A stretch of DNA of 28,257 nucleotides, from IMG/VR virus record IMGVR_UViG_3300037524_001161, positions 1-28,257 of that record. The stretch is one strand, 5' to 3'. Of this stretch, positions 300 to 14,083 are shown piece by piece; the first letter of the stretch is position 1; each line of letters starts with the position of its first letter. A program made the translations under genes and the position numbers. The notes beneath the pieces are model-generated. The model was not told where the DNA came from, made no database searches, and saw nothing but the letters and a program-made list of their open reading frames with translations. The stretch comes from a virus. Lineage: Duplodnaviria > Caudoviricetes.

Positions 300-1040
300 T
301 TAAAACGGGCACTGCGCCTCGCGGGTGCGGCGGCGGACGATGTCTGAGGGAGTGCCGGCGGCTTTCTCGCGGGAGACGCGGATGGAGGTCTCACGGGTGA
401 TCTCCGCAATGGCCTCGCCGTGGGTGCTGCGGTGGGGCTGCACAGGGTTTGCAGCATCGCTGCCTGGGGCGGGCAGAGTCTGGACGATGCGCTGCATCTC
501 GCGGGAATTGGCGGCGAGGGTATCGAGCGCCTCGCGGGTATCCTCCGCGTGGAGGGACTGGAGGCGTGAGGCGGCGCGGTTGAGGATGGCCTTGTTCTGG
601 CGGAGCTGCTCGGTCTGCGCCTCGGTGTCCAGGACGGCGGGGCGCTCGCGCAGTGGCAGGGACTCGATGTAACATCCCGTCTCGTCTAACAAGTGCAGCA
701 CCTCCGGGGTCTGGCGGTTGATGACGTAGTAGAATTTTTTCTCACGGCTGGTGAAATCGTTGAGGATGACGCTGTGCTCGTGGAAATAGACATATCTGCC
801 GCCGATGTCCTTGCGATCCACGGTGACACCCTTGTTGCCGATGACGGCGCGGCCCTTCATGCTGAGGATGGCGGCGGCGAGCTCGTTGGAGATGGGCCGG
901 ACCTCGCCGGGCCGGAGCCTGTATTCCTCGGCGGGCGAGACGGTGACGGCGCGGGTGCGGAGGGTGGTTTCCTCGGCGGCGGCGGAAGATGCGGGCGAGA
1001 CGCCCGCGCTCCCCTGGTCGAATGTGATGTTGCGGATCAT
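300..1040 (-). CDS. Transposase C-terminal part (MuA C-terminal beta-barrel-like domain plus helical tail) as a separate ORF
   Basis: SPAEEY helix followed by beta-rich AVIGNKGVTV..YVYF..YYVINRQTPEVLHLLDETGCYI, which is the pattern following the DDE core in Mu-type transposases. Lies between the DDE ORF and the MuB-like gene. Confidence 0.72.
   Translation of the reverse strand: MIRNITFDQGSAGVSPASSAAAEETTLRTRAVTVSPAEEYRLRPGEVRPISNELAAAILSMKGRAVIGNKGVTVDRKDIGGRYVYFHEHSVILNDFTSREKKFYYVINRQTPEVLHLLDETGCYIESLPLRERPAVLDTEAQTEQLRQNKAILNRAASRLQSLHAEDTREALDTLAANSREMQRIVQTLPAPGSDAANPVQPHRSTHGEAIAEITRETSIRVSREKAAGTPSDIVRRRTREAQCPF
985..1013. repeat. REP-like hairpin, copy 1 (GAAGATGCGGGCGAGACGCCCGCGCTCCC), inside a CDS
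   Basis: 29/29 identical to 8029-8057; stem GCGGGC-GAGAC-GCCCGC. Confidence 0.85.
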
Positions 1041-1050
1041 GGTGAGTTAG

Positions 1051-1078
1051 CAGTGAGCAGTGATCAGTGAGCAGTGGT
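1051..1078. repeat. Heptamer array (CAGTGAG/CAGTGAT, 4 units) between the two transposase ORFs
   Basis: cagtgag cagtgat cagtgag cagtggt; 1058-1077 is the exact reverse complement of 17913-17932. Confidence 0.9.
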
Positions 1079-2466
1079 CAGAGTGTTTCAACCTCTCGCC
1101 AGACGCCTGGACCGATTTCAGCTTCGAGGAGGGTGTGGAAGCCCTGCATGGTATGGCCACGGGTGGCATTGTGATCCCGGACGGCGGCAGCGACGGCGGC
1201 GGCTCCCTGGGAGGTGGTGAGGAGCGGCAGCTTGAGCTTGGCATCCGCGCCGGCGGCCAGCGCGGTGAGCTTGAACTGGGCGAGCTTCTCGGCCTGGGCG
1301 CGCAGCGTTTCCCGGCCGGAGCGGGAGGCGTCCTTGACGAGGGAATCCCCCACGCCGAGGTTGGCGGGTTGGTTGCCGAAGTTGTTGCCGCGCTGGCCGG
1401 GCTGGTGGCCGAGGCGGCGGTGGAGATTGCGGTTGAAGCTCTCGATGACAGCCTTGCCGGCGGAGTGGCCGGATGACTTGTCTGCGGGTGCGCCGATCCA
1501 GCGCACGCCGCCATCCATGGAGGTGCGGTGGATCTTGAGAGCGCCATCGGAGAATGCTTCCAGGACTTTTTGAGCGGCCTCGCTGCAGGCGACGGTGCCG
1601 CGCTCAAACCAGATGTGGGTGGTGTAGCCGACGCCGAGGCCGTAGCCATCCGCCTGCAAGGTGGCGGCGATGAGTTCGTCCACATCCTCCGCCCGGATGG
1701 CATCCACCGGCTTGACGAGGAAGGCGGGTATGGAGCGGGATGAGACCTCCATCATGAGATAGGCCATCATTTCCACGACGCGGCCGGAGAGCTCATCCAG
1801 GCAGACGAAATCAAGCCGGACGTCGTCGAGCGTGTAGAGCTCGCACTTGCGCAGCTTGCTGTAATCACGGTCGATGGATGGCAGGTGCTTGAGGGCGGCG
1901 GCGGTGCCGAGATTGCCCATGCGGGAGATGGCCTTGGGCGGCATCTTGCGAGTGATGGTCTTGTAGGACCATGGGAAGTCCGGCGGGTGGTTCGGCAGGG
2001 CGAGGGCGGGGTGCGCAATGGCCCACCAATCCTGCCAGGTGCCGATGCCGGGGAGGCTGCCGCCGGATTTCCAGAGGGAGATGAGGCGCTTGTAAATCTG
2101 CGCGGCCTCCATGCCGTTTTGGTGCTTGTCCCGGCCGCCGTTGTTGTTGGAGGCGAGGCGCTGGATCTCGTTGGCGAGGAGATCGGGGATGATGTGGGGT
2201 TTGTTGGGTGCGTAGGATGGCAGCAGCGAGGTGCATTTGCGGCCAGATTTTTCCCAGGCATACCAGAGACGAGTGAGGGTCTTGAGAGTGGCCTTGAGCG
2301 TGCGCTTGCCGCCATCGAGCGGCCGGCCGTGGATGCGTGACTCGATTGAGATGAGGCCGGCGACGAGTGGGGCGCACTCGGCATCCATGCGGTGCGCGAG
2401 GGAGCGGAACTCCTCATCAATGATGGAGACGCGTTGGCGTTGCCAGGCTGGGATTTTGCGGCTCAT
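1078..2466 (-). CDS. Mu-like DDE transposase (DNA-binding domains plus catalytic core), 462 aa from MSRKIPAW
   Basis: RNase H-fold motifs LYTLDDVRLDF, LMMEVSSRSI, IWFERGT, GKAVIESFNRNLH and a later HN..R.H motif. Confidence 0.88.
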   Translation of the reverse strand: MSRKIPAWQRQRVSIIDEEFRSLAHRMDAECAPLVAGLISIESRIHGRPLDGGKRTLKATLKTLTRLWYAWEKSGRKCTSLLPSYAPNKPHIIPDLLANEIQRLASNNNGGRDKHQNGMEAAQIYKRLISLWKSGGSLPGIGTWQDWWAIAHPALALPNHPPDFPWSYKTITRKMPPKAISRMGNLGTAAALKHLPSIDRDYSKLRKCELYTLDDVRLDFVCLDELSGRVVEMMAYLMMEVSSRSIPAFLVKPVDAIRAEDVDELIAATLQADGYGLGVGYTTHIWFERGTVACSEAAQKVLEAFSDGALKIHRTSMDGGVRWIGAPADKSSGHSAGKAVIESFNRNLHRRLGHQPGQRGNNFGNQPANLGVGDSLVKDASRSGRETLRAQAEKLAQFKLTALAAGADAKLKLPLLTTSQGAAAVAAAVRDHNATRGHTMQGFHTLLEAEIGPGVWREVETL

Positions 2467-2474
2467 GACGGGAT

Positions 2475-3173
2475 TCAGATGGTGATGGAATCCGGATCGA
2501 CGTGTGCGAGGGCGTCCGCTTCGTCGCTGGGCGTCCAATGGGTGCCGGTGAGTTCCCAGAGCATGGAGTAAACCCTGGCGGTGGCGGCGCGCTGGAAATC
2601 CGGATAGGCGGCGAGCTGGGACTTGAGCTGGCAGATTTTTTCCGACTGGACGCGGAAGTCCGAGAGGTTCTGGCGGAGGAAGTCGAATTCCTGCTGCTCG
2701 TGGGTGGGTGGTGGCGGCCCAGCGGGTGCAACCGGATCCAAGGTGGCATCGCAGAGGGCCTTGATGGTAGTGATGCCGCGGGCGGCGAGGGCGGAATCGA
2801 TGTCCTCCTCGGCAGCAGTATCGTCCAAGCCCAGGCCGCGCACGGCGGTCATGTATTTGTAGGCGGCACCCTTTTTGAGGTAGGGCGCGGCGGTGGAAAG
2901 CCAGCCTTCGAAGCTGTGGGCTTCGAGCTCGTCACGGCGTGACGAGCTTTTCCGGCCTTTCATTGCTCCGCGCTTTTTCGGGTCTTGAACAGCAAACGCG
3001 CAGTGGGCTTTGAGACAGTGCAGACCCTGCTTGAGGAGGTAGGGAATGATCTCCATTTGGTAGCGGCGCTCGCTTTCGAGACGGGATTCTTCGAGGGCGG
3101 CGAGGCGCTCGTGGGCGGTGCCGATGATGGTTTTGATATCTGGCAGGACGGTGATGGCGGTGGTTTTGGACAT
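2475..3173 (-). CDS. Early protein, DUF3102-like (upstream of the transposase)
   Basis: G..LKA...FEGWL......AYKYM pattern and position. Start taken at ATG 3173 behind a heptamer leader. Confidence 0.55.
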   Translation of the reverse strand: MSKTTAITVLPDIKTIIGTAHERLAALEESRLESERRYQMEIIPYLLKQGLHCLKAHCAFAVQDPKKRGAMKGRKSSSRRDELEAHSFEGWLSTAAPYLKKGAAYKYMTAVRGLGLDDTAAEEDIDSALAARGITTIKALCDATLDPVAPAGPPPPTHEQQEFDFLRQNLSDFRVQSEKICQLKSQLAAYPDFQRAATARVYSMLWELTGTHWTPSDEADALAHVDPDSITI

Positions 3174-3182
3174 GGGAGTTGA

Positions 3183-3221
3183 GAGTGATCGGTGATCAGT
3201 GTTCAGTGAGCAGTGGAAGAG
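3183..3221. repeat. Heptamer array (5 degenerate CAGTGAN units)
   Basis: gagtgat cggtgat cagtgtt cagtgag cagtgga; 3203-3221 is the exact reverse complement of 17908-17926. Confidence 0.85.
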
Positions 3222-3421
3222 AAAATTCCTGCGGGGTCTTGGAACTCGGCGACCTGCTCGATGGCGAGGTGTAAGCCGAAGCGGCGGTTGAATTTTTTTA
3301 CGGCCTTGTTCTTGGCTGCCTGGAAGGTGCGGGCGTTTTCCGGGTAGGTGGCGCGGCCTTTGTGTGGGCGGCCCTCCTCCGCCTTGCGGCGAGTCCAGTG
3401 GATGTTGATGAGGTAGAGCAT
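3203..3421 (-). CDS. Small basic hypothetical early protein (72 aa, MLYLINIHW...)
   Basis: Fits operon packing; ATG 3421 follows a C-rich leader. Confidence 0.6.
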   Translation of the reverse strand: MLYLINIHWTRRKAEEGRPHKGRATYPENARTFQAAKNKAVKKFNRRFGLHLAIEQVAEFQDPAGIFSSTAH

Positions 3422-3426
3422 GGAGG

Positions 3427-3654
3427 TTAGCAGTGAGCGGTGGATGGATATTGATCCGGGTCTCCGGGGATGTGGTTGTCGGCGAAAACCGACGGAGTGG
3501 ATGACCAGGACTGCATGAGGCCGTTGCATGGTGGGCCGGTAAGCTCGCAATCGTGGCCGATGACGCGGTCCTCATCGACGAGCACGACGCGCATTTGCTT
3601 GCCGGTTTTGCGGGGTCTCCAGATGGAGCCGGGTTGTGGGAGTTCTGAGATCAT
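3427..3654 (-). CDS. Small hypothetical early protein (75 aa, PQPGSIWRPRKTGKQMRVVLV, small beta-barrel-like)
   Basis: ATG 3654, operon packing, PG..W...K.G...V pattern common in small phage proteins. Confidence 0.6.
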   Translation of the reverse strand: MISELPQPGSIWRPRKTGKQMRVVLVDEDRVIGHDCELTGPPCNGLMQSWSSTPSVFADNHIPGDPDQYPSTAHC

Positions 3655-4413: not shown

Positions 4414-4707
4414 TCAGTGGGAAAGTGCGGCGGCGCGTTTGCGCGTGGCGTGGATGACGGGGGTGCCGATGGTCTCGCGGGCGATGGCTTGGAACTTCTG
4501 ATAGGACCAGCCGAGGGGTTGATCATTGAGGCCTGCGGGCGGGCAGCGGTCGTAGCCAGGGATGGCATTGCCGGGGTTGCCATCCTGCCAGAGTGTCCAG
4601 CGCAGGATGAGGCCGCGATGGAGGCGGCGCACGGAGGTGAAGTGCTGGCTGAGGATGTAGCCCTTGAGCCAGGAGACGAAGGCGGCGGGTAGCGGATCGG
4701 TTTTCAT
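4414..4707 (-). CDS. Stand-alone protein resembling a DNA-binding domain of the transposase (97 aa)
   Basis: LILRW..G...IPGY..PP...GWSY..AAAL parallels transposase LISLWKSGGSLPGI..PPDFPWSY..AAAL. Confidence 0.6.
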   Translation of the reverse strand: MKTDPLPAAFVSWLKGYILSQHFTSVRRLHRGLILRWTLWQDGNPGNAIPGYDRCPPAGLNDQPLGWSYQKFQAIARETIGTPVIHATRKRAAALSH

Positions 4708-4726
4708 GGAGTGGGGATTGGAGAGG

Positions 4727-5011
4727 TTAGAGTTCGGAAGGCGGGGCGGAGTAGAGGTCACGGAGGATGCGCAGCCAGTTGGGATCGTGGCGGAAGCGGG
4801 TGAGGAGGTCGGCCTGGATCTGGCGGAGGCGGCGCTCGGTGAGGCCGTGCTCGGCGGCGAGCTCGGCAGCGCTCATCGCGGCGGGCTCCTTGGCGAGACC
4901 GGCGGCGCGCAGCGCGAGCCGGCGGAGCTTGGCGTCCGACACGGCGCGCTCGATCCAGGCATCGGCAAGGGCCTCGGCCAGGGAGTCGTCGTCGTGGAGG
5001 TGGGCGGACAT
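4727..5011 (-). CDS. HTH protein, sigma region 4-like (possible middle/late activator)
   Basis: MSAAELAAEHGLTERRLRQIQADLLTRFR. Confidence 0.65.
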   Translation of the reverse strand: MSAHLHDDDSLAEALADAWIERAVSDAKLRRLALRAAGLAKEPAAMSAAELAAEHGLTERRLRQIQADLLTRFRHDPNWLRILRDLYSAPPSEL

Positions 5012-5014
5012 GGG

Positions 5015-5215
5015 TCAGGCAGTGGCTTTGGTTTTGCGCATGGACTGCTCAAGGGCGCGGAATCGCCGCGTCAGGGAGGCGCTTTGACGGTGGCCGTGGA
5101 GCACGCGGGAAAGGTGCTCGCGAGTGACGCCTAACTGGATCGCCGCATCCTTCAGCGGGATATGGTTTGACGCCCTCGGGCGGCGCGTGTCTGATTTGAG
5201 CTTGTGACGGGTCAC
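5015..5215 (-). CDS. Ner/Cro-like HTH, first gene of the early operon (probable GTG start at 5215)
   Basis: LKDAAIQLGVTREHLSRVLHGHRQS; divergent from the repressor. Confidence 0.75.
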   Translation of the reverse strand: MTRHKLKSDTRRPRASNHIPLKDAAIQLGVTREHLSRVLHGHRQSASLTRRFRALEQSMRKTKATA

Positions 5216-5282
5216 ACGCGCAGAATTACAGTTTTCGCAGTCGATGCAACCTAAATTTTGCAGTCCATCGCAGTTTTCGCAG
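5216..5282. promoter_or_regulatory. Lysis/lysogeny switch region with repeated operator-like motif CAGTTTTCGCAG
   Basis: Exact 12-mer at 5229-5240 and 5271-5282; AT-richer than the surroundings; possible leftward TTGCAT-N15-TAATTC promoter (weak). Confidence 0.6.
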
Positions 5283-5672
5283 CGGACTGATGATTTAGCC
5301 TCTGCTCTAGGCTGCAACCTCAAGGAATTGCCTGAAAAAATGGGAATTTCCGAACGGGCGATGTACGGCTACAGGTCTGGAAAATATCCAGTGACTGCGA
5401 AAGCACTGCGAAAATTGGCAGCGGCCGAAGTAGCGGCTGGAATGAATCAGCGATCGGGAGCGTTTGTAGAAAGCTCCGCGGAGCTTAAGGAAAATCCCGC
5501 ATATCCAAGTGCGGATTTGCTGTGCGACGGGCCAACACATTATCGGGCGAAGGACAAAGCCGCCGGCGGACATGAGCCGCCCCTGCAGGATGATCCGATT
5601 TCCGCGGCGTTTTCCAAGATCCGAGAGGGTCTTGATATGTTGGAACAACTCATGAAAAAAATGCCTCAATAA
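5244..5672 (+). CDS. Prophage repressor, XRE-family HTH (no recognisable S24 peptidase domain)
   Basis: FSQR..L...LGCNLKELPEKMGISERAMYGYRSGK; divergent position; exact start uncertain. Confidence 0.78.
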   Translation: MQPKFCSPSQFSQRTDDLASALGCNLKELPEKMGISERAMYGYRSGKYPVTAKALRKLAAAEVAAGMNQRSGAFVESSAELKENPAYPSADLLCDGPTHYRAKDKAAGGHEPPLQDDPISAAFSKIREGLDMLEQLMKKMPQ

Positions 5673-5676
5673 AGCC

Positions 5677-6003
5677 ATGAAAAGACCCTCAGGAATGCCG
5701 AAATGGAAGTGGGAGCGAAGAAATGACCCGCCAAGCCGGGAAGAGACGACTCGTGAATCCGTAGCCAGGTTAGAGCAACTGAAAGCCTCCGGGGTGAAGT
5801 GGGTGGAATGGATCACGGCCGGTACCGGCGATGAATGCCCACACTGCCTGGCGATGAGCGGCAAGGTGATGAAAATCGAAAACGTTCCTTTCGTGGAGCA
5901 TCCGGATTGTGAGCATGAGATGGGCTGCCGCTGCCTCTTGATTGCGGTTGCAGCACCGGATGGAGAGGAAGATGATGAGTGCGAAGACGATCTTGAACCA
6001 TGA
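5677..6003 (+). CDS. Stand-alone MuF (SPP1 gp7-like) C-terminal Cys/His domain protein
   Basis: GVKWVEWITAG..ECPHC..HPDC..GCRC; aligns to 13820-14083 of the portal-MuF fusion. Confidence 0.78.
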   Translation: MKRPSGMPKWKWERRNDPPSREETTRESVARLEQLKASGVKWVEWITAGTGDECPHCLAMSGKVMKIENVPFVEHPDCEHEMGCRCLLIAVAAPDGEEDDECEDDLEP

Positions 6004-6287
6004 AAACGGACTCGCTCCCATGGCCCGTAATCCGCTGGATGGCGGCGGGTGTTTTTTATCTGCTCACAGTGGCGATCGCGTTCGACCAGGTGCGTATCCG
6101 GGAAGAAAGGATCAGCGAAATGAAAGCCGCGGCCAAAGAGATCCAGGAGGGACTCAACCGGATCATGCAAACGACGGATCAGAACATTCTGGAAACGGAG
6201 GAATTGATCGGGAGGTTGGAAGCCGAGGAGCAGCGCAAGAATGAAGAGGTGATCCGCACTTTGCGGCGATTCAGCGGCGAGCGGTGA
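6000..6287 (+). CDS. Membrane-anchored coiled-coil protein
   Basis: N-terminal TM segment (WMAAGVFYLLTVAIAF) then an E/K/R-rich helix; ATGA overlap with the upstream gene. Confidence 0.7.
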   Translation: MKTDSLPWPVIRWMAAGVFYLLTVAIAFDQVRIREERISEMKAAAKEIQEGLNRIMQTTDQNILETEELIGRLEAEEQRKNEEVIRTLRRFSGER

Positions 6288-6317
6288 AGCGCTTCCGGGC
6301 CGCCATTTCCGCCCCCA

Positions 6318-6326
6318 TGCTAGAGT
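6318..6326 (+). promoter_or_regulatory. Candidate extended -10 (TGcTAGAGT) giving a leaderless transcript
   Basis: 6 nt upstream of ATG 6333; no canonical -35. Confidence 0.4.
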
Positions 6327-6332
6327 GCGTGC

Positions 6333-6629
6333 ATGGCCAGCCAGTTGATGTTGTTCGAGACAGTGCAGACGGCGAATGCGGACGGATCGTTCACGGTGAG
6401 GCCGAAGGCGATCGCGGTGACGCGTGAGATCGGCGCTGGGCGTGCGGCCAAGATTCTGGGCCTGCACGTGGAGACGGTTTACCGGCTGTGTGAGCTGGGT
6501 GAGGAGCACGGCGGACTCAAAGCCTGGAAGCTGCCAAGCGCGCGCGGCAATGCGAAATGGAGGATTGATTGGGAGAGCGTCGCAGGCTACAAGCAGCGGC
6601 GGCAGCGCCAGATGGGCGCGGCATCTTGA
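6333..6629 (+). CDS. Excisionase/MerR-type (HTH_17-like) DNA-binding protein, candidate late regulator
   Basis: IGAGRAAKILGLHVETVYRL...LKAWK....KWRIDWESV; located just before the lysis genes. Confidence 0.75.
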   Translation: MASQLMLFETVQTANADGSFTVRPKAIAVTREIGAGRAAKILGLHVETVYRLCELGEEHGGLKAWKLPSARGNAKWRIDWESVAGYKQRRQRQMGAAS

Positions 6630-6641
6630 AAACAAGGCGCT

Positions 6642-6687
6642 GGACAGGATGTCCCGGCCACGGTCTGGAACTGCAAGTTCCAGCCAC
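6642..6687 (-). repeat. Two tandem GTGG-headed REP-like hairpins
   Basis: Minus strand GTGG-CTGGAACT-TGC-AGTTCCAG and GTGG-CCG-GGACA-TCC-TGTCC. Confidence 0.55.
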
Positions 6688-6810
6688 TATCAAGAAAATG
6701 TGAGGGGGCGTGCGGGGTGGTGACGGGGGGTGATTACCGGGTTTGAGCGGGCTGTGGTTAGGTCTTGGGCGTCCGAGCGAAAGCTCATTGCCCACCATGA
6801 AACCAAGACC

Positions 6811-7233
6811 ATGAACCTCGCATCCCAAGTCCGACATTTCCTGACCTTTCTCGCCGGTCTCGGCGGGTTGTTTTTGTCCTGGAACCTCATCGCGCCCGAG
6901 CAGGTGGCGGAGGTCAACAAGGCCGGCGCGGATCTGATTGATCCGATCATGATTCTCATCGGCGCGGTGGCGGCGGGCGTGGCCCGCCTGGTCATCGGCT
7001 GGATCAGTTCTCTCATCGGCCGGGGGGCCGGTGGGATTGGAGAGAAGCTGCGCGGGATTCCCGTATGGCTCGGCTTGATCGGCACGGCAGTGGCGCTGGG
7101 GACGGTGCTGCCGTCGTGCTCGGTTGGCGAGTATCCGATCACGGGCAGCATCACCTACCGGGACGAGGCCACCGGCGCGAAGGCCGGGCTGACGTTTTAT
7201 CCGCCGGTGCGCAAGGTGCGCACGGAGAAGTGA
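6811..7233 (+). CDS. Holin-like multi-pass membrane protein with C-terminal lipobox-like LPSC and beta-rich tail
   Basis: Three hydrophobic segments; first gene of the late block; ATG 6811. Confidence 0.55.
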   Translation: MNLASQVRHFLTFLAGLGGLFLSWNLIAPEQVAEVNKAGADLIDPIMILIGAVAAGVARLVIGWISSLIGRGAGGIGEKLRGIPVWLGLIGTAVALGTVLPSCSVGEYPITGSITYRDEATGAKAGLTFYPPVRKVRTEK

Positions 7234-7331
7234 TTTCAATGGCGGCCGAGGCCCATCCAAAGGGAAGCCGCGCGTGCGGCGCAACGAGGCCCGAAGGCCG
7301 CCACCCACTCTAACAAAAATAACACCACACG

Positions 7332-7538
7332 ATGAACAACGCGCTTCTCATCCCGCTCATGCTGGCACTCTCCGCCATTTCGATGGTGGTGATCGCCGGT
7401 GTGGCACGGAGCATCTGGCGCGAGATGAATGACGCTCCGGGAGATGCGGAAGGTGAGACCCGGAGCGAGCGGCGGACGGAAGAGCGCAAGAACGAGCGGA
7501 TCCGCCGGGAGATCGAGCAATGGAGGGAAGAGAAATGA
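7332..7538 (+). CDS. Small membrane-anchored protein with charged tail (lysis cassette)
   Basis: N-terminal TM segment, E/R-rich C-terminus, ATGA coupling to the next gene. Confidence 0.6.
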   Translation: MNNALLIPLMLALSAISMVVIAGVARSIWREMNDAPGDAEGETRSERRTEERKNERIRREIEQWREEK

Positions 7539-7921
7539 GGGTTTCGCTGACATGGCTGGCGTTGGCTGGCGTTATGGCGGCGGCCGGCATCAATCTTGCA
7601 TGGACGCCGAACCCGACTGCCGAGAACATCACTTTCTATGAGGTGACAGCCAAGACGCCGAACACCGAGCTGGCGTTGGAAAACCTCAAGCCTGGCGTGC
7701 CTTACTTCTTCTCGCTGCGCGCGGAGAATGCGGCGGGCGTGAGCGATTTCTCCCCGGTGATCACCGGCATCCCGCTGCCTCGCTACAAGGTGACGATCCA
7801 GAAAAGCGCCAGCCTCGGCGTTTGGTCGGACACCACCACGGTGCTAACAGGCACGGCGAATGGCGCGGAGTTTTTCCGGTTGAAGATCGAGCTGGATGAT
7901 TACCAGGGGGTGGAGCCATGA
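7535..7921 (+). CDS. Secreted fibronectin type III-like protein
   Basis: Signal-like N-terminus; LAWTPN..ITFYEV..LENLKPGVPYFFSLRAENAAGVSDFS; C-terminal IQKS.SL..W...FFRLKIE. Confidence 0.75.
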   Translation: MRVSLTWLALAGVMAAAGINLAWTPNPTAENITFYEVTAKTPNTELALENLKPGVPYFFSLRAENAAGVSDFSPVITGIPLPRYKVTIQKSASLGVWSDTTTVLTGTANGAEFFRLKIELDDYQGVEP

Positions 7922-8532
7922 GCCTGGTGGCAGACATCAAGACGATCCAGCGTGCGGTGGGCGCGGATCCGGACGGAGTGTTCGGGCCGCGGACTGCGGC
8001 GGCGGTGCTGCGGGAGTTGAGGATGGGTGAAGATGCGGGCGAGACGCCCGCGCTCCCTTTGGACGCGCGGACGCTGGCGACACTGGCGACACTGGACCCG
8101 AAGGCGCGGGATGAATTCGAGATTTTCATGCTGCACGCCAAGGCGATTGCGGCGACTCTGGGCTGCGATTACATGGCGATCTCTGGCACGCGCACCTGGG
8201 AAGAGCAGGCCGAGCTTTACCGGAAATACAAGGCCGGCGGACCGAAGGCAGCGCCTGCTGGCGGCTCCTGGCACAACTACGGCACGGCGATCGACTGCGG
8301 GGTATTCCGGCAGACCCGCGGCGGGCAGATTTACTGTGACGATTCCAAGCCTGAGCTTGCGATGAAAGTTCATGCGGCGTGCAGCACGCTTGTTAATGAT
8401 TTCACGCTGGAATGGGGCGGCGCATGGAAAGGCAAGTCCTGCGACCCGCCACACTATCAGATCAATCTCGGCCGCTCGTCTCCGAACGCGGCGGACCGGG
8501 CAAAGTTCAAACAGGAAGGGAGCGTGCTGTGA
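7918..8532 (+). CDS. Endolysin: peptidoglycan-binding domain plus M15-family peptidase
   Basis: IQRAVGADPDGVFGPRT; SGTRTWEEQAELY, SWHNYGTAID, WGGAW, DPPHYQ. Confidence 0.9.
   Translation: MSLVADIKTIQRAVGADPDGVFGPRTAAAVLRELRMGEDAGETPALPLDARTLATLATLDPKARDEFEIFMLHAKAIAATLGCDYMAISGTRTWEEQAELYRKYKAGGPKAAPAGGSWHNYGTAIDCGVFRQTRGGQIYCDDSKPELAMKVHAACSTLVNDFTLEWGGAWKGKSCDPPHYQINLGRSSPNAADRAKFKQEGSVL
8029..8057. repeat. REP-like hairpin, copy 2, in frame in the endolysin linker
   Basis: Identical to 985-1013; encodes EDAGETPALP. Confidence 0.85.
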
Positions 8533-8765
8533 AAGCCTCCCGCAAACATTACGACGAGCTGCTGGGGATGAGCGACGGCGAGCAGCTCGCGCGCGTCAAG
8601 TCCCTGAAAGGCGCGGAGCTGGCGGCGCTGATGCACTACGCGCTGGGGCGCGAGGCCGGAGAGCGGCGCGACGCAGTGCTCTCCCTGGTGCTGGCAGTGG
8701 CCGGCCAACGGTATCTCACCAAGCAGGCGGCGAAGGCCAGAAAGACAGCGAAACGGATCTTATGA
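8529..8765 (+). CDS. Hypothetical protein (78 aa, GTG start)
   Basis: GTGA and ATGA overlaps with both neighbours. Confidence 0.6.
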   Translation: MKASRKHYDELLGMSDGEQLARVKSLKGAELAALMHYALGREAGERRDAVLSLVLAVAGQRYLTKQAAKARKTAKRIL

Positions 8766-9292
8766 TGATGACTTATTTGGCAGAGGCATCGGCGGCCAAC
8801 GGATTGAGTCCGGAGGCTGTGGGGATTTTGATCGGCGGCATCATCACGGCGCTGGTGGGTGGCGGCTTGCTGGGCAAGCGGGCGGGCAAGACCGAGGGCA
8901 AGGCGGAGGCGCTGCAGGTGGGGCCGCAGCCGTTCATGGTGGAACTCAAGGAGACCTTCGTGACGCGGCGCGAGCATGACCGGCTGGAGGCGATGGTGGC
9001 GGTGAACGCGACGCGGGTGGAAGGCATGTTCCGCGAGACGATGAACGAAGTGAAGACGCTCAACTCCCAGACGAACTCCGCATTGATCCGCCAGGGCGAG
9101 AGGCTGAGCGAGGAAATCGAGAAGGTGGCCAAGGCGGCATACGACGGCCGCCAGCGGCTGCACAATCACGTGAACTCCCATGGCGAGAAGATCGCGGCGC
9201 TGAGCGTGAACAACGACGTGGCCACGGAGCTGGCGCGAGTGTCGGAAGTGATCGTCGAGGCGATCAAGGAAACCAAGAAACCCAACGGCTAA
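8762..9292 (+). CDS. Membrane-anchored coiled-coil protein, Mu gp25-like position
   Basis: TM segment VGILIGGIITALVGGGLLG, FVTRREH, coiled coil; synteny. Confidence 0.65.
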   Translation: MMMTYLAEASAANGLSPEAVGILIGGIITALVGGGLLGKRAGKTEGKAEALQVGPQPFMVELKETFVTRREHDRLEAMVAVNATRVEGMFRETMNEVKTLNSQTNSALIRQGERLSEEIEKVAKAAYDGRQRLHNHVNSHGEKIAALSVNNDVATELARVSEVIVEAIKETKKPNG

Positions 9293-9296
9293 GATC

Positions 9297-9566
9297 ATGG
9301 CAGGAAAATCACGAGTCTCACCCGGGCGAGTCCGCAAGGCGGTGCGCGATGTGCTGAAGTTCCAGGAAGGTGAGCCGCTCAATGAGGATCCGATGCTGGA
9401 TGCTGTGAACGAGCTGGTGGGCGGCGGCGTGGGCCTCACGGAGCTGCGCGACGCGCTGGAATGGAATCACAGCGAGGCGTTCGTGCGCACCGAATACATC
9501 GACGAGCTCGAACTCGACGGCTGGGTAATCACCAAGGCCGGCATCAATCACGATAGAATCAAGTGA
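9297..9566 (+). CDS. Mu gp26-like winged-helix protein
   Basis: ELRDALEW....FV....WVITKAG pattern and synteny. Confidence 0.6.
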   Translation: MAGKSRVSPGRVRKAVRDVLKFQEGEPLNEDPMLDAVNELVGGGVGLTELRDALEWNHSEAFVRTEYIDELELDGWVITKAGINHDRIK

Positions 9567-10202
9567 ATGGAAACGCTCAAAGACCCGCGAGTGGATGCGA
9601 TCCTGCCCAACAAGGCGGAGAGCGATCCGCAGTTTGCCGAGGACATGTGGCGCTTGCGGCACCCGGAAAAGGACGGCAAGAAGCTGAGCCTGGCCGAGGT
9701 GCTGGTGGAATTGCAGGCAAGCCATGGCATCGAGGTCTCCATGTCCACGCTCTGTGCGTTTTACAAATGGCTCTCGGTGCGGCGGGACTTCAAGGCGACC
9801 AACGATGTGATCCGCCAGGTGAAGGCCGAGATGCGTGCCGATCCGGACTTCACGGAGGAAGAGGTGGAGAAGGCCGGGCGCATGATGTTTGCCACGCGTG
9901 GCATGGCCATCAAAGACCCGAAGATGTTCCAGGCGGCCATCAAGCTGGGCCACGGCCGCACGGCCCTGGACCAGCGGGACAAGCAGCTCAAGCAGCGGGA
10001 CAAGGAGCTGACGCAGCGCGAGAAGCTCGTGGAGCAGAGCGAGCGGAAGCTGGCGATGCTGGAAGCCAAGGCGGCGCGACTGGATGCGCTGGAGGCCAAG
10101 GCGAAGGAAATCCACGGCGACGCCACCCTCACTCCGGAAGAGCAGCGCCAGGCGCTGCTGGACAAGATGGACGATTTCTTCGGCCTCAAGAAAACCGCGT
10201 AA
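9567..10202 (+). CDS. Mu gp27-like (DUF3486-like) putative small terminase subunit
   Basis: SLAEVLVELQASHGIEVSMSTL HTH plus coiled coil, directly upstream of the large terminase. Confidence 0.7.
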   Translation: METLKDPRVDAILPNKAESDPQFAEDMWRLRHPEKDGKKLSLAEVLVELQASHGIEVSMSTLCAFYKWLSVRRDFKATNDVIRQVKAEMRADPDFTEEEVEKAGRMMFATRGMAIKDPKMFQAAIKLGHGRTALDQRDKQLKQRDKELTQREKLVEQSERKLAMLEAKAARLDALEAKAKEIHGDATLTPEEQRQALLDKMDDFFGLKKTA

Positions 10203-11701
10203 TGGCAGCAATCCTTCCAGGCATCAACATCGATAGCGACTCCGTGCTGGCGCGCTATTTCATGCGGCACCAGCTCGAATGGATCGAAGACGACTCATCC
10301 ATGCGGCTTGCGGAGAAAAGCGTGCGCATCGGCTGGACCTATGGCGACGGTTTCAAAAACGTGCGCAAGCGCCTGCGGCACAAGAACCGGGATTACCTCT
10401 TTGCCACAAAGGATCAGCAGAGCGCGGTGGAGTATCTGCAAACCTGCGTCCGCTTCGCCGAGATGTTCGACTACACCAAGAGCATCATTTCCCACGGCAT
10501 GGATGAGATGAAAGTCCAGGCCAAGGATGAGAACGGCAAGAGCTTCATGGAGGATGTGAAGTTCGGATACATCAAGTTCGACAACGGCTCCCGGATCATC
10601 GGCTTTTCCGCCAACCCCTACGCGATGGCCGTGTTCGGCGGAGACGTGGGTCTCGACGAGTTCGCGAAGCACGCCAACGCCGAAAAGCTGTGGGAAACGG
10701 CGCAAGGCCGGATCACCTGGGGTTATGACATCGGCGTGTGGTCCGCCCATGACGGCACGGACACCCTGTTCTATCAATTCAGCCGCGAGGCACAGGCCGG
10801 CAAAGGCGGCTGGAGCCACTACCGCGTTACGATGGAGGATGCGGTGGAGATGGGCCTGGTGGAGAAGATCAACGCGGTGTCCGGCAAGAACATGACGCGC
10901 GAGCAGTTCATCCAGGACTGCAAGAACCGCGCGCGGCTGCCGGAGATTTACGAACAGGCCTACAACTGCAACCCGAGCGGATCGGCGAGCGCCATCGTTC
11001 CCTGGGCGCAGATCGTGCAGTGCCGGGTGGATCGCAAGATCGAGCGGATGCACATGGAGGAGGCGCAGATCACCGAGATGTTCGGAGACTTCGACAAGGC
11101 CACGGAAAAGGCGCGGCAAAAGCGCATCGCGGATTTCATCAAGAGCGGTTTCGCCAAAGTGCTCAACGATCCGCAGAAATACCGGCTGGGATTCGACGTG
11201 GCGGCGAGCGGCCAGGGCGACCTGGCATCCATCTACATCGACCGCAAGGAGACGGCTCAGTTCAAGCTCGACGCACTCTTCACCTGCCGGACCAAGGACT
11301 GGGACTTCCTGGAAACCGTGCTCTGGACCTTCATGAGCCATCTGAGCGCCGTGCAGGGCGCGGGCGACGAGACCGGCCTGGGCCGCCAAGTGTGCTGGCG
11401 GACCTGTCAGCAGTTTCCAGGGCAGTTCGCGGGCATCAACTTTTCCAGCAAGAAGCACGAGATGGGATTCTCCCTGATGAACCAGCTCAGCACGGCGGAG
11501 AAGATCATCCCGACGGATCATGATGACATCGCCCAGGACTATTACTCGCTGCGCAAAACCTATACCGGCGGCCGGTGGGTTTTCAGCGCCGGGCGGAACA
11601 ATCTGAACCCTAACAGCCACGGGGACATCGCCTGGAGCGGCGCGCTGGCCACCCATGCCGACCTCGGCACCACCCGCGACATCCAATGCATCCTCTGCTA
11701 G
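10202..11701 (+). CDS. Terminase large subunit, Mu gp28-like (499 aa)
   Basis: EKSVRIGWTY (Mu-type Walker A variant), VGLDEFA (Walker B), GFDVA and HGDIAWSGALA nuclease motifs. Confidence 0.92.
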   Translation: MAAILPGINIDSDSVLARYFMRHQLEWIEDDSSMRLAEKSVRIGWTYGDGFKNVRKRLRHKNRDYLFATKDQQSAVEYLQTCVRFAEMFDYTKSIISHGMDEMKVQAKDENGKSFMEDVKFGYIKFDNGSRIIGFSANPYAMAVFGGDVGLDEFAKHANAEKLWETAQGRITWGYDIGVWSAHDGTDTLFYQFSREAQAGKGGWSHYRVTMEDAVEMGLVEKINAVSGKNMTREQFIQDCKNRARLPEIYEQAYNCNPSGSASAIVPWAQIVQCRVDRKIERMHMEEAQITEMFGDFDKATEKARQKRIADFIKSGFAKVLNDPQKYRLGFDVAASGQGDLASIYIDRKETAQFKLDALFTCRTKDWDFLETVLWTFMSHLSAVQGAGDETGLGRQVCWRTCQQFPGQFAGINFSSKKHEMGFSLMNQLSTAEKIIPTDHDDIAQDYYSLRKTYTGGRWVFSAGRNNLNPNSHGDIAWSGALATHADLGTTRDIQCILC

Positions 11702-11905
11702 GCCCGCCATGATCCACAAACACCCCATTTCCGACCGGATGTTGAAAAGGCCGCCAGAATCGATTTTACGCCCGGCATGCCGCGCGGACGGGCCATTGCG
11801 CCCGGATCGGGCTGCGAGGGCTGCAAACCGGCTGCACGGGCCTGCACGGGCCGGTTTCACGGCGCGCGGGAATGCTCCCGGCTCCATGATGACAGGAGGT
11901 GGCCG

Positions 11906-14083
11906 GTGAATGTGAAATCGATGATTTCGAGGCTGCCGGGCATCGGCGGGATTTTGGCGCGCAGCCTGGGCTGGCAGAATGCCATGTTCGGCGATCTGTT
12001 AGGCGGCGGCAGCGGCACCACCGGAGACCTGACCAGGGCGTATGCGCGCAGCGCCTGGGTGCGCAGCGCGATCGGATTCGTGGCGGCTCCCATCGCGATG
12101 CGGCCGTTGATCTTCTCACGCGACAAACGGGGCGGCGACGTGGTGATCGACGACGCGGCGCTCACGGCATTCTGGGAGCGGCCGGCGCGGGACTGCACCG
12201 GGTCGATGAACCGGCAGGATTTCTTTGAGGCCACGGTGGGCCTGCTCAAGCTCAAGGGCCAGTGCTTCTGGATCATGGATGACACTTGGCTCACGCCGCG
12301 CGCCCGCAAGAACCCGCTGATCCTGGCCAAGCCGGACTCGATGCATGCGGTGATGGATGGCGGCGAGCTGATCGGCTGGAGCTACAGCGACAAGCGCGGT
12401 GGCAAGTCCGCGCTGATCCCCGAGCAGGTGATCCATCAGAAATTCTGGAACCCGTATCACGACTGGATGGGCCTCTCGGAATGGGAGGGAGCGATGATCG
12501 CGGCGGAGAGCGATTACGCCGGCGGCGTGTTCGCGCGCAACCTGGCGAAAAACAACGGCGACCGCGGGCCGTTCGTCATTGGGCGCGGCGGGCAATTTTC
12601 CGACGATCAAATCAAACAGGTCTCCGCGCAACTGAGGCAGAAGCGCGAACTCGGACGGCGCGGCGAATTCCGCGCGGCCTTCCTGCCCGCCGATGTGGAC
12701 GTGAAGGAACCCGGAGTAAATGCGGTGGACTCCGCGTTCGTGACGCAGCGCCTGGAGAACCGCAAGGAGATCTACGCGGCGTTCGGTGTGCCGCAGAGTT
12801 TCGCGGATGCGCAGGCGAGTTACAGCATCGGCTCGGCGAGCGATCGCTTCCGTCTGATCGAGGACACCTGCATGCCGCTGGCCGCCAAGATTGCGGACGG
12901 CATGGAAGTGGTGAGCCAGCGCTTCCTTGGCACGCGCGAGACGGTGTTCGTGGAGTTCGACTGGGACAGCCACTCGACGATGCAGCAGGTGCGCGCCGAG
13001 CGTTTCGAAACGGCGGCCAAGGCCGTGAACATGGGCATGCCCTGGAAAACGGCGGGCGAGTATTTCCGGCTGCGGCTGCCAAGGTTCCCTGGGGACTCGG
13101 TGGGCAGGATTCCGTTCAACCTGCAGGAGATCGAGGAACCAGGGGTCAGAGATCGGGAGTCCGAGGTCAGTGAAGAGGAAGAGGATGACCCGGTGGCGGA
13201 CTTGGAAAAGGTGTTTGCAGCCTACACGCAAGCGCCGTGCAAGGGCCATGCCGGCGCTGTGCAACCGAAGGCGGTGAGTGCGAAGGCGATGGCGACCTGG
13301 AAGCGGGTGCGCGCCCGGCGCGAGGCGTGGGAAAAGAAGTATGCCAGCCGCATCCGCAGGCACCTGATGGATGCGCGCGGCGAGACGCTGCGCAAGATCG
13401 CGGCAGCCGGGGAAGGCAAGGCGGTGGGCAAGAGCGTGGATGTGCTCTCGCTGATCTTCGATCTGGATGCCTGGCTCAAGGATTGGATCAAGGGCCTCGG
13501 CGCTACGGCGCGCGCGGCGATCGAGGCGGCGGGCGCGGAGCTGTGGAGCGAGGAGCTACAGCGCGATGATCCGCTCACGATGCCTGCGGCGGAAACGCTG
13601 GAAGTGTTACGGGTGCGTGAGAACCGCATCAAGGATGCCGGAACCAAGGTCTGGGACGCGATCAAGAGCGAACTGGAAACCGGCATCAACGGCGGCGAGA
13701 CCATGGACGAACTCGCGGAACGCGTGCGCCGGAAGTTCGGCGGCATGGAGAAGGGCCGCGCGATGGTGATCGCCAAGACCGAAACCACGGCGGTCTATGA
13801 AGGCGGGCGGGACATCGTTTTCAAAGCGGCCGGCGTGCAATGGACGCAGTGGATCACCAGCGGCCTGGGCAACGAGCGTCTGACGCATTTGGCAGCCAAC
13901 GAGCAGATCCAGGCCATCGAAGACAAGTTCCTCGTGGGCGGCTATGAGCTGGCCTATCCCGGGGATCCGGACGGACCGCCACAGGAAGTGATCAACTGCA
14001 ACTGCGTGCGCATCGCCGTCGGCAGCCCTGAAGGCGGCGACGATGGCGAGGATTTCAACAACGACGACACGATCCCCTATTAA
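11906..14083 (+). CDS. HK97-family portal protein fused to a MuF (SPP1 gp7-like) minor head domain
   Basis: AYARSAWV..I, GQCFW, EQVIH....P....GLS, IYAAFGVP; C-terminal GINGGE..EL..RV..RAMVIAKTE..W..R..H..PGDP..EVINCNC; AGGAGGT then GTG at 11906. Confidence 0.88.
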   Translation: MNVKSMISRLPGIGGILARSLGWQNAMFGDLLGGGSGTTGDLTRAYARSAWVRSAIGFVAAPIAMRPLIFSRDKRGGDVVIDDAALTAFWERPARDCTGSMNRQDFFEATVGLLKLKGQCFWIMDDTWLTPRARKNPLILAKPDSMHAVMDGGELIGWSYSDKRGGKSALIPEQVIHQKFWNPYHDWMGLSEWEGAMIAAESDYAGGVFARNLAKNNGDRGPFVIGRGGQFSDDQIKQVSAQLRQKRELGRRGEFRAAFLPADVDVKEPGVNAVDSAFVTQRLENRKEIYAAFGVPQSFADAQASYSIGSASDRFRLIEDTCMPLAAKIADGMEVVSQRFLGTRETVFVEFDWDSHSTMQQVRAERFETAAKAVNMGMPWKTAGEYFRLRLPRFPGDSVGRIPFNLQEIEEPGVRDRESEVSEEEEDDPVADLEKVFAAYTQAPCKGHAGAVQPKAVSAKAMATWKRVRARREAWEKKYASRIRRHLMDARGETLRKIAAAGEGKAVGKSVDVLSLIFDLDAWLKDWIKGLGATARAAIEAAGAELWSEELQRDDPLTMPAAETLEVLRVRENRIKDAGTKVWDAIKSELETGINGGETMDELAERVRRKFGGMEKGRAMVIAKTETTAVYEGGRDIVFKAAGVQWTQWITSGLGNERLTHLAANEQIQAIEDKFLVGGYELAYPGDPDGPPQEVINCNCVRIAVGSPEGGDDGEDFNNDDTIPY

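Follow-up and report, generated by a model that had tools for sequence, protein, structure and literature searches.

A stand-alone MuF-C-like protein encoded behind a presumed phage repressor: a separate MuF branch with a possible role in inter-phage interference

MuF is among the commonest of phage head proteins, and its function is poorly understood. Jamet et al. (2017, PMC5576092) counted 614 muf genes across 611 phages, from which it follows that few phages have a second gene of the MuF type. The window, by which we mean the whole 28,257-bp IMG/VR record analysed here (linear ends, two divergent arms), contains exactly such a second gene. Why should a phage with a MuF domain already fused to its portal protein encode another, smaller MuF-like piece, and why directly behind the regulator of its switch region? 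The question is framed by the following features.

5015-5323, minus strand: divergently oriented ORF that opens the leftward arm and has an HTH-like stretch (PF22083, weak, E 0.002)
Within 5229-5417: operator-like 12-mer CAGTTTTCGCAG, exact at 5229 and 5271, with a one-mismatch copy at 5406 on the minus strand
5244-5672, plus strand: 142-aa regulator of the XRE-like HTH type, with which the rightward unit begins (PHROG phrog_8, transcriptional regulator, E 9e-4)
5677-6003, plus strand: stand-alone MuF-C-like cysteine-rich protein, 108 aa (ATG at 5677, stop at 6001-6003)
11777-14083, plus strand: resident portal-MuF fusion, 768 aa (PF04860 at residues 95-421, PF04233 at residues 628-744)

The 108-aa ORF begins 4 nt past the stop codon of the HTH gene, exactly as the initial annotation had placed it. 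That annotation also called the upstream gene a repressor, which can be upheld in part: the phrog_8 match and a homologue in the related phage L008, whose first rightward gene is 53% identical over 38 aa (E 3e-12), are in favour, whereas the product has no Pfam match, and we refer to it as the presumed lysogeny repressor. The longest form of the divergent leftward ORF overlaps positions 5244-5323, making its start uncertain; a similar leftward HTH ORF was recognised by eye in L008. Two exact copies of CAGTTTTCGCAG, 42 bp apart, straddle the start of the HTH gene. With four occurrences in the whole window against 2.4 expected, the 12-mer is not significantly enriched and only its clustering is notable; the repeats are candidate operators. 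The GC content dips to 0.55-0.57 at 5001-6500.

The small protein had been likened to the C-terminal MuF domain of the resident fusion on the strength of two ungapped stretches. Both of these fall within a BLASTP alignment to fusion residues 682-767 (29/86 identical, 34%; E 8e-12), and a six-frame search of the record with the small protein recovered the resident MuF at E 1.5e-9. The part of the fusion that is resembled is the C-terminal half of the MuF domain, at approximately 13820-14083. PF04233 matches the small protein at E 1.3e-4 and 23.1 bits (curated cut-off 29.6) over profile positions 41-112 of 112, while TIGR01641 scores 22.3 bits against a cut-off of 39.65, so that neither profile gives a full-length MuF domain match above its curated cut-off. 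The start of the Pfam match at profile position 41 bears out the earlier observation that the N-terminal helical region of MuF is missing. The PHROGs matches of the small protein are head-morphogenesis families. An AlphaFold2 model based on a 71-row alignment has a mean pLDDT of 81.1, and a Foldseek search of BFVD with this model, in which both sides of the comparison are predicted, returned 11 rows at E <= 1e-3, every named one being a minor capsid or head morphogenesis protein. On the basis of this model the small protein probably shares the MuF fold. Among solved structures, a PDB sequence search with the small protein gave chance rows only and a Foldseek search of the PDB with the model gave none at E <= 1e-3; the best Z from VIA-align wide was 3.9, with no fold assignment past 'MuF-like'.

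The small protein carries a cysteine motif of the form C-x-H-C ... H-x2-C-x-H-x3-C-x-C. Its close homologues are few: three proteins of 83%, 77% and 75% identity, and one of 67% in L007, a contig of a Luteolibacter MAG. Residues C54, H56, C57, H75, C78, H80, C84 and C86 are invariant in these four, and the C54/C57 and C84/C86 pairs (CxxC ... CxC) are at least 90% conserved across 54 short relatives. The eight residues are candidate zinc ligands and the protein may be a zinc-binding one. An ImmA-type metalloprotease was considered and rejected: there is no HExxH, the histidines lie within CPHC and HPDCEH, and no ImmA/IrrE Pfam family matches.

Is the small protein, then, a copy of the MuF domain that this phage already has? 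The initial annotation described it as a mimic of the phage's own MuF, and here the evidence points the other way. The small protein is 52% identical to other short proteins as against 34% to the resident domain; it keeps a CxxC pair that is missing from the resident domain, which has the C-x-C only; and the two belong to separate clades of the domain tree described below. With both clade and cysteine pattern differing, a recent duplicate of the resident MuF was rejected as well. The acidic tail, once counted as common to the two proteins, is dispensed with in the L007 homologue and in the relative P0004, which stop directly past the CRC..IAV motif.

The cysteine pair is missing from most resident MuF domains of these phages. 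No CxxC is found in 10 of the 11 records assessed, the window and L007 included, the exception being G402; in 8 related records besides these two, the resident MuF has a V-R-x-x-H stretch in its place. Portal and resident MuF form a single fusion protein in 9/11 carrier records. In addition to the window and L007, where the same is true, seven of nine further records have the canonical MuF in a portal-fusion frame of 763-825 aa, and the remaining two are one with a separate 348-aa MuF frame and one 15-kb fragment without MuF. The idea that the cassette is strictly tied to a resident MuF without the Cys pair was rejected, since G402 keeps its CxxC, and L008 has neither the Cys pair nor the cassette. 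The portal-MuF protein is fused both in G402 and in L008, so the link between fusion, cysteine loss and cassette is loose.

If the small protein is not a copy of the resident domain, it should have relatives of its own. An exhaustive HMMER search gave 132 representative clusters (50% identity) at E <= 1e-3. Fifty-one of these are 135 aa or shorter, and nearly all of the short ones start with Met and end just past the C-x-C...IA motif. Of the 81 longer relatives, 31 have SAP or SAP_new25 on the N-terminal side of the match according to Pfam, four have GYF_2 (one also with FtsK_gamma), one has MlaD and one a Zeta-toxin cargo; a full-length PF04233 (profile start <= 12) is present in 10, one of them with an ADP-ribosyltransferase cargo. 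In a set of 54 short sequences, 19 touch PF04233, five have GYF_2 and no other family is recurrent. The five-cysteine pattern occurs in 111 of the 132 relatives, including 5 of 12 full-length MuFs. Wherever the source names a family member, the name is 'hypothetical protein'. One metagenomic relative of 223 aa, P0086, joins FtsK_gamma and GYF_2 to a MuF-C-like end. SAP and FtsK_gamma are DNA-binding modules, and the FtsK gamma domain reads chromosome polarity motifs.

A midpoint-rooted FastTree analysis of the domain took in 170 of 177 sequences, the other seven being resident portal-fused domains that fell below the domain filter. It resolves the three groups listed here, with a domain of only ~65 residues and weak deeper nodes (0.52, 0.10).

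SAP-type group, 76 tips, support 0.91: SAP-fused and related forms
Short/GYF-fused group, 48 tips, support 0.81: the window protein together with all ten of the other locus proteins that are short or GYF-fused, from nine phage loci and the bacterial island L012
Virion MuF group, 42 tips, support 0.90: canonical and resident MuFs

Judged by this comparison of sequences, the short or SAP-/GYF_2-fused MuF-C proteins are shown here to form a broad, unannotated clade distinct from the virion MuFs. A tblastn search of 50,697 records of cultured phages with the window protein and the SAP-fused P0154 gave no match, a metagenome profile scan gave only two canonical MuFs and one false match, and an IMG/VR profile scan gave 17 matches, every one a long canonical MuF (283-723 aa, with one frame truncated at the end of a contig). 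Among 401 genomes of the order to which the Luteolibacter MAG belongs, only 2 had matches. In the bacterial genome G260 (L012, 9609-13483) a GYF_2-fused MuF-C gene lies 1.6 kb from tRNA-Met and is followed downstream by a 515-aa SAP-domain protein and then a 549-aa protein that matches no Pfam family and in which a Walker-A-like motif can be seen by eye. No virion gene families were found near this gene, and L012 looks like a small integrated element without virion genes.

These relatives also bear on whether the small ORF could be the decaying, functionless fragment of a duplicated muf gene. It does correspond to no more than the final two thirds of the Pfam domain, with a score below the curated cut-off. 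Decay, which had been named at the outset as an outcome that would overturn a functional reading, is nevertheless contradicted by a dN/dS of 0.21 against the L007 homologue (pS 0.65, near saturation; 0.25 in the portal comparison) and by the invariance of all eight Cys and His residues. The small gene is under purifying selection, in line with the earlier proposal that conservation is at the protein level. In addition, an intact homologue, 67% identical, occupies the same position in L007, the 51 clusters of short relatives are intact, and their clade is separate from the resident MuF. We regard decay as very improbable.

The gene is followed by three further features which define its immediate setting.

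6000-6287, plus strand: second cassette gene, 95 aa, with an N-terminal hydrophobic anchor and a charged helical remainder (from sequence and hydropathy)
6030-6060, plus strand: terminator-like hairpin and T-run (weak evidence), 27 nt past the MuF-C stop, where it falls within the 5' part of the next ORF
6333-6629, plus strand: HTH_17/excisionase-like gene, right border of the cassette (PF12728, E 1.9e-5)

The start of the second gene overlaps the MuF-C stop (ATGA), and its product reaches a maximum Kyte-Doolittle 19-mer score of 1.90 at residue 10. A scan for terminator-like patterns over 4500-10000 gave 9 sites compared with 4.1 +/- 2.1 in shuffles. The gene at the right border has a homologue in L008 (38% identity, E 5e-9) that lies directly past the XRE gene. 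In that phage, whose portal is 59% identical, both flanking genes are therefore adjacent and neither cassette gene is present: the two-gene cassette is accessory, missing in a related phage. No homology was found between the downstream proteins of the window and L007, and a conserved two-protein pair with the downstream gene was rejected on account of their dissimilarity. Lipoprotein-like, signal-peptide or membrane proteins nonetheless adjoin the MuF-like gene in 8 loci (by eye and hydropathy scan). A search for sequencing runs that contain the stretch gave eight, all of them DNA and mostly from wetland metagenomes, with none of RNA among them. The cassette stretch is unchanged in contigs of three of the four DNA runs compared, and no contig of the four joins across it.

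Does the position behind a regulator recur? Loci were retrieved via the MuF-like protein alone, with neighbours unselected, which gave 11 phage loci. In 10 of them the MuF-like gene is preceded, on its own strand, by a gene for a DNA-binding regulator (none was recognised in L035), so the recurrent linkage to switch regulators that had been anticipated is indeed found. Seven of the regulators are Pfam-supported at E <= 0.005, and three have weaker support.

L007: RHH_1
L030: HTH_3
L031: HTH_3 and Peptidase_S24, a CI/LexA-type repressor architecture
L032: HTH_31
L033, L034 and L038: HTH_3
L036: BLASTP match to the L007 RHH protein, E 8.5e-8 (weaker support)
L037: BLASTP match, E 0.003, and an HTH recognised by eye (weaker support)
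Window: PHROG match, E 9e-4 (weaker support)

The partner regulators have at least three unrelated architectures (XRE-HTH, RHH and CI-type with S24). Where regulator and MuF-like gene are directly adjacent the gap between them is 4-57 nt; one ORF intervenes in L031, L033 and L036, and L034 has a gap of 537 nt. The 11 loci share a genome layout and so are not independent, which means that the linkage may be largely inherited; counter to pure inheritance, the regulators themselves have been exchanged among the carrier phages.

The linkage could be explained if MuF-C were a zinc-dependent DNA- or DNA-end-binding domain that is not aimed at other phages. Together with the regulator beside it, the protein would then act on the genome or decision circuit of its own phage, perhaps as a nucleoid-type protein, a co-regulator or an anti-repressor-like factor. 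A DNA-binding regulator next door in 10/11 loci is what such an accessory factor would lead one to expect, and the operator-like repeats of the region fit it too, as does the finding that this domain is joined to SAP in 31/81 longer relatives and, once, to FtsK_gamma. The MuF protein of SPP1, gp7, is moreover called a DNA-binding protein in the title of Stiege 2003 (cited in PMC5576092 and PMC6316719). The same regulators, however, come in three unrelated folds, making a specific protein-protein partnership unlikely, and L008 has a homologous regulator but no MuF-C gene, so the switch does not require MuF-C; nor was any solved structure matched. We consider an accessory role of this kind possible but doubtful.

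The remainder of the record shows where the unit stands relative to the late genes.

~5323 down to 1, minus strand: leftward arm, genes mostly without a family
4727-5011, minus strand: 94-aa protein that weakly resembles sigma-70 region 4 (RpoS models, E 7.8e-5, well short of the cut-off) and a PHROG family of late activators
Rightward arm, plus strand, in order: XRE-like HTH gene, lysis genes, large terminase, portal-MuF fusion, capsid gene
7520-7921, plus strand: protein with a fibronectin type III domain (PF00041, E 2.8e-9), flanked by small membrane ORFs on one side and the M15 endolysin on the other
7918-8532, plus strand: M15 peptidase (lysis; endolysin)
9563-11701, plus strand: large terminase, 712 aa, in which the Terminase_6N match begins only at residue 333

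The late start of the Terminase_6N match leaves the first ~330 N-terminal residues of the terminase unexplained. A class-3 lipase gene (PF01764, E ~5e-32) lies just upstream of the terminase in L034 (7092-7841) and L035 (4945-5694). In the other arm, the 94-aa protein has a homologue at the same place in L008, judged by eye, and the window stretch 300-3575 (minus strand) is conserved in L007 (4346-8960, minus strand), with a 486-aa ORF 74% identical and a 246-aa ORF 77% identical; the L007 arm continues into an AAA_22/TniB-like ATPase. The large ORF of the leftward arm matches no family, and the arm may be a replication module of the transposition type or the loader type. CheckV puts the completeness of the record at 27%, although switch region, lysis, head and part of the tail genes are present, and that of related records (13-36 kb) at 12-39%; the reference genomes of the lineage may be much larger, or the CheckV estimate may be poor.

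With this layout in hand, a second, free MuF-like piece might be thought to serve the phage's own virion, in capsids or at packaging, where it might supply the Cys/zinc site missing in the fused MuF. The small protein is, after all, homologous to a virion protein; its gene lies on the same strand as the terminase and 2-5 kb upstream of it in the window, L032, L034 and L035; and it has the CxxC that the resident MuF lacks in 10/11 records. Yet the gene is missing from L008, which has the same Cys-less fused MuF, and it is located outside the head module, 5.8 kb from the portal gene (start 11777), the portal-adjacent place being taken by the resident fused MuF. Opposite-strand ORFs stand between the MuF-like unit and the late genes in L032, L033, L035 and L036, the L031 gene follows a CI-type repressor and reads to the contig end, away from structural genes, and relatives occur in the bacterial island L012, in which no virion genes were found. 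A virion or packaging component is accordingly a distinctly unlikely answer in our estimation.

Our leading guess, to which we assign a probability of about 0.35, is that a MuF-like module made by the lysogen interferes with incoming phages at the portal/MuF/DNA step. The regulator would be the lysogeny repressor and the small gene, judging from the spacing alone, would be co-transcribed with it in lysogens. The free module would then bind the portal, or the MuF-bound DNA, of other phages, and this binding would block DNA delivery or packaging of the incoming phages. As a refinement, the covalent joining of MuF and portal in the carrier phages may be what spares them. This is a modified form of the decoy proposed in the initial annotation, in favour of which the regulator linkage, the purifying selection and the accessory cassette can be cited; the mimicry of the phage's own MuF is not upheld.

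Three considerations place interference first. Exclusion genes co-transcribed with phage repressors are known in lambda (rexAB), P22 (sieB) and HK022 (nun), and exported, lipoprotein or membrane neighbours are typical of prophage exclusion cassettes (Ltp, Llp, Cor). In its position, accessory distribution and neighbours, the present cassette resembles such lysogen-expressed exclusion cassettes beside repressors: in common with rexAB, sieB, nun and the Ltp-type lipoproteins it has a place beside the immunity regulator, a patchy accessory distribution and exported or lipoprotein neighbours. No sequence relationship of the small protein to these exclusion genes was found, and it matches no PADLOC family; the 5027 PADLOC models run against 22 proteins of this and related cassettes gave no match, the only rows being two at chance level for other proteins. 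The second consideration is homology to MuF, from which the target would be whatever MuF touches. SPP1 gp7 binds strongly to the portal, binds DNA and supports the start of infection (PMC6316719). The third is the precedent of Tab, the tail assembly blocker of a Pseudomonas prophage (Patel et al. 2024, PMC10884400), in which a prophage protein blocks the assembly of an invader and the carrier escapes; Tab differs in that its targets are tail assembly and the tape measure protein, and in that its description there does not present it as copied from a structural domain.

Other observations count against interference. SPP1 can be assembled without gp7, and 25% of the particles that lack it retain infectivity (PMC6316719), so blocking MuF may cost a rival little. 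The window's regulator could be Cro-like instead of CI-like. In the majority of loci the lysis and terminase genes lie ahead of the unit in its reading direction, so that late expression is possible. The small ORF appears, by its profile match, to be without the first 40 profile positions and the whole N-terminal MuF region, and the SAP and FtsK_gamma fusions mean that a DNA-directed role fits at least as well. A wider extension of the interference reading is more tentative still, and we think it unlikely: the stand-alone and SAP-/GYF-fused MuF-C proteins would together constitute a widespread, undescribed inter-phage interference module, in which a free portal/DNA-contacting MuF end, made from the immunity operon, obstructs packaging or DNA delivery in rivals that recruit a separate MuF, and the carriers are self-immune through their portal-welded MuF.

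Whatever its function, the protein differs from the MuF systems described to date. With SPP1 gp7 and Mu gpF (MuF; PF04233, TIGR01641) it shares the C-terminal half, the CxxC...CxC motif and the predicted fold, but it corresponds to profile positions 41-112 only, at a sub-cut-off score and without the N-terminal helical region, it is encoded in a switch operon instead of beside the portal, and it has a fifth conserved Cys (C78), extra His residues and a clade of its own. MuF polymorphic toxins and MuF-fused effectors (PMC5576092; Iyer et al. 2017, PMC5512222) likewise represent modular reuse of MuF in phage conflict. In those proteins a full N-terminal MuF brings a C-terminal cargo into the capsid, whereas in the family described here the C-terminal MuF piece stands alone or behind SAP, GYF_2 or zinc-ribbon modules, and the parts of the two papers that were covered contain no MuF-C-only architecture. 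The arrangement had been thought undescribed, and our literature search agrees in that it found, in the passages covered, neither stand-alone or C-terminally placed MuF-C modules nor their linkage to regulators; short forms may be listed in the supplementary architecture tables of PMC5576092.

The analysis defines a separate, unannotated branch of MuF with 132 clusters, of which ~10 are of the full-length virion type. The branch has left the head module and, in at least 10 phage loci, lies beside lysis-lysogeny regulators, usually with exported proteins. Should it serve for exclusion, it would clearly exemplify the use by a phage of part of a structural protein against its rivals, and cysteine mutants together with fused and free MuF would offer a handle on the role of MuF at the portal. 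Were it instead a DNA-binding accessory, a biochemical role would be identified for the conserved zinc end of MuF. Either way the family merits a profile of its own, which would end its annotation as a 'minor capsid protein' fragment.
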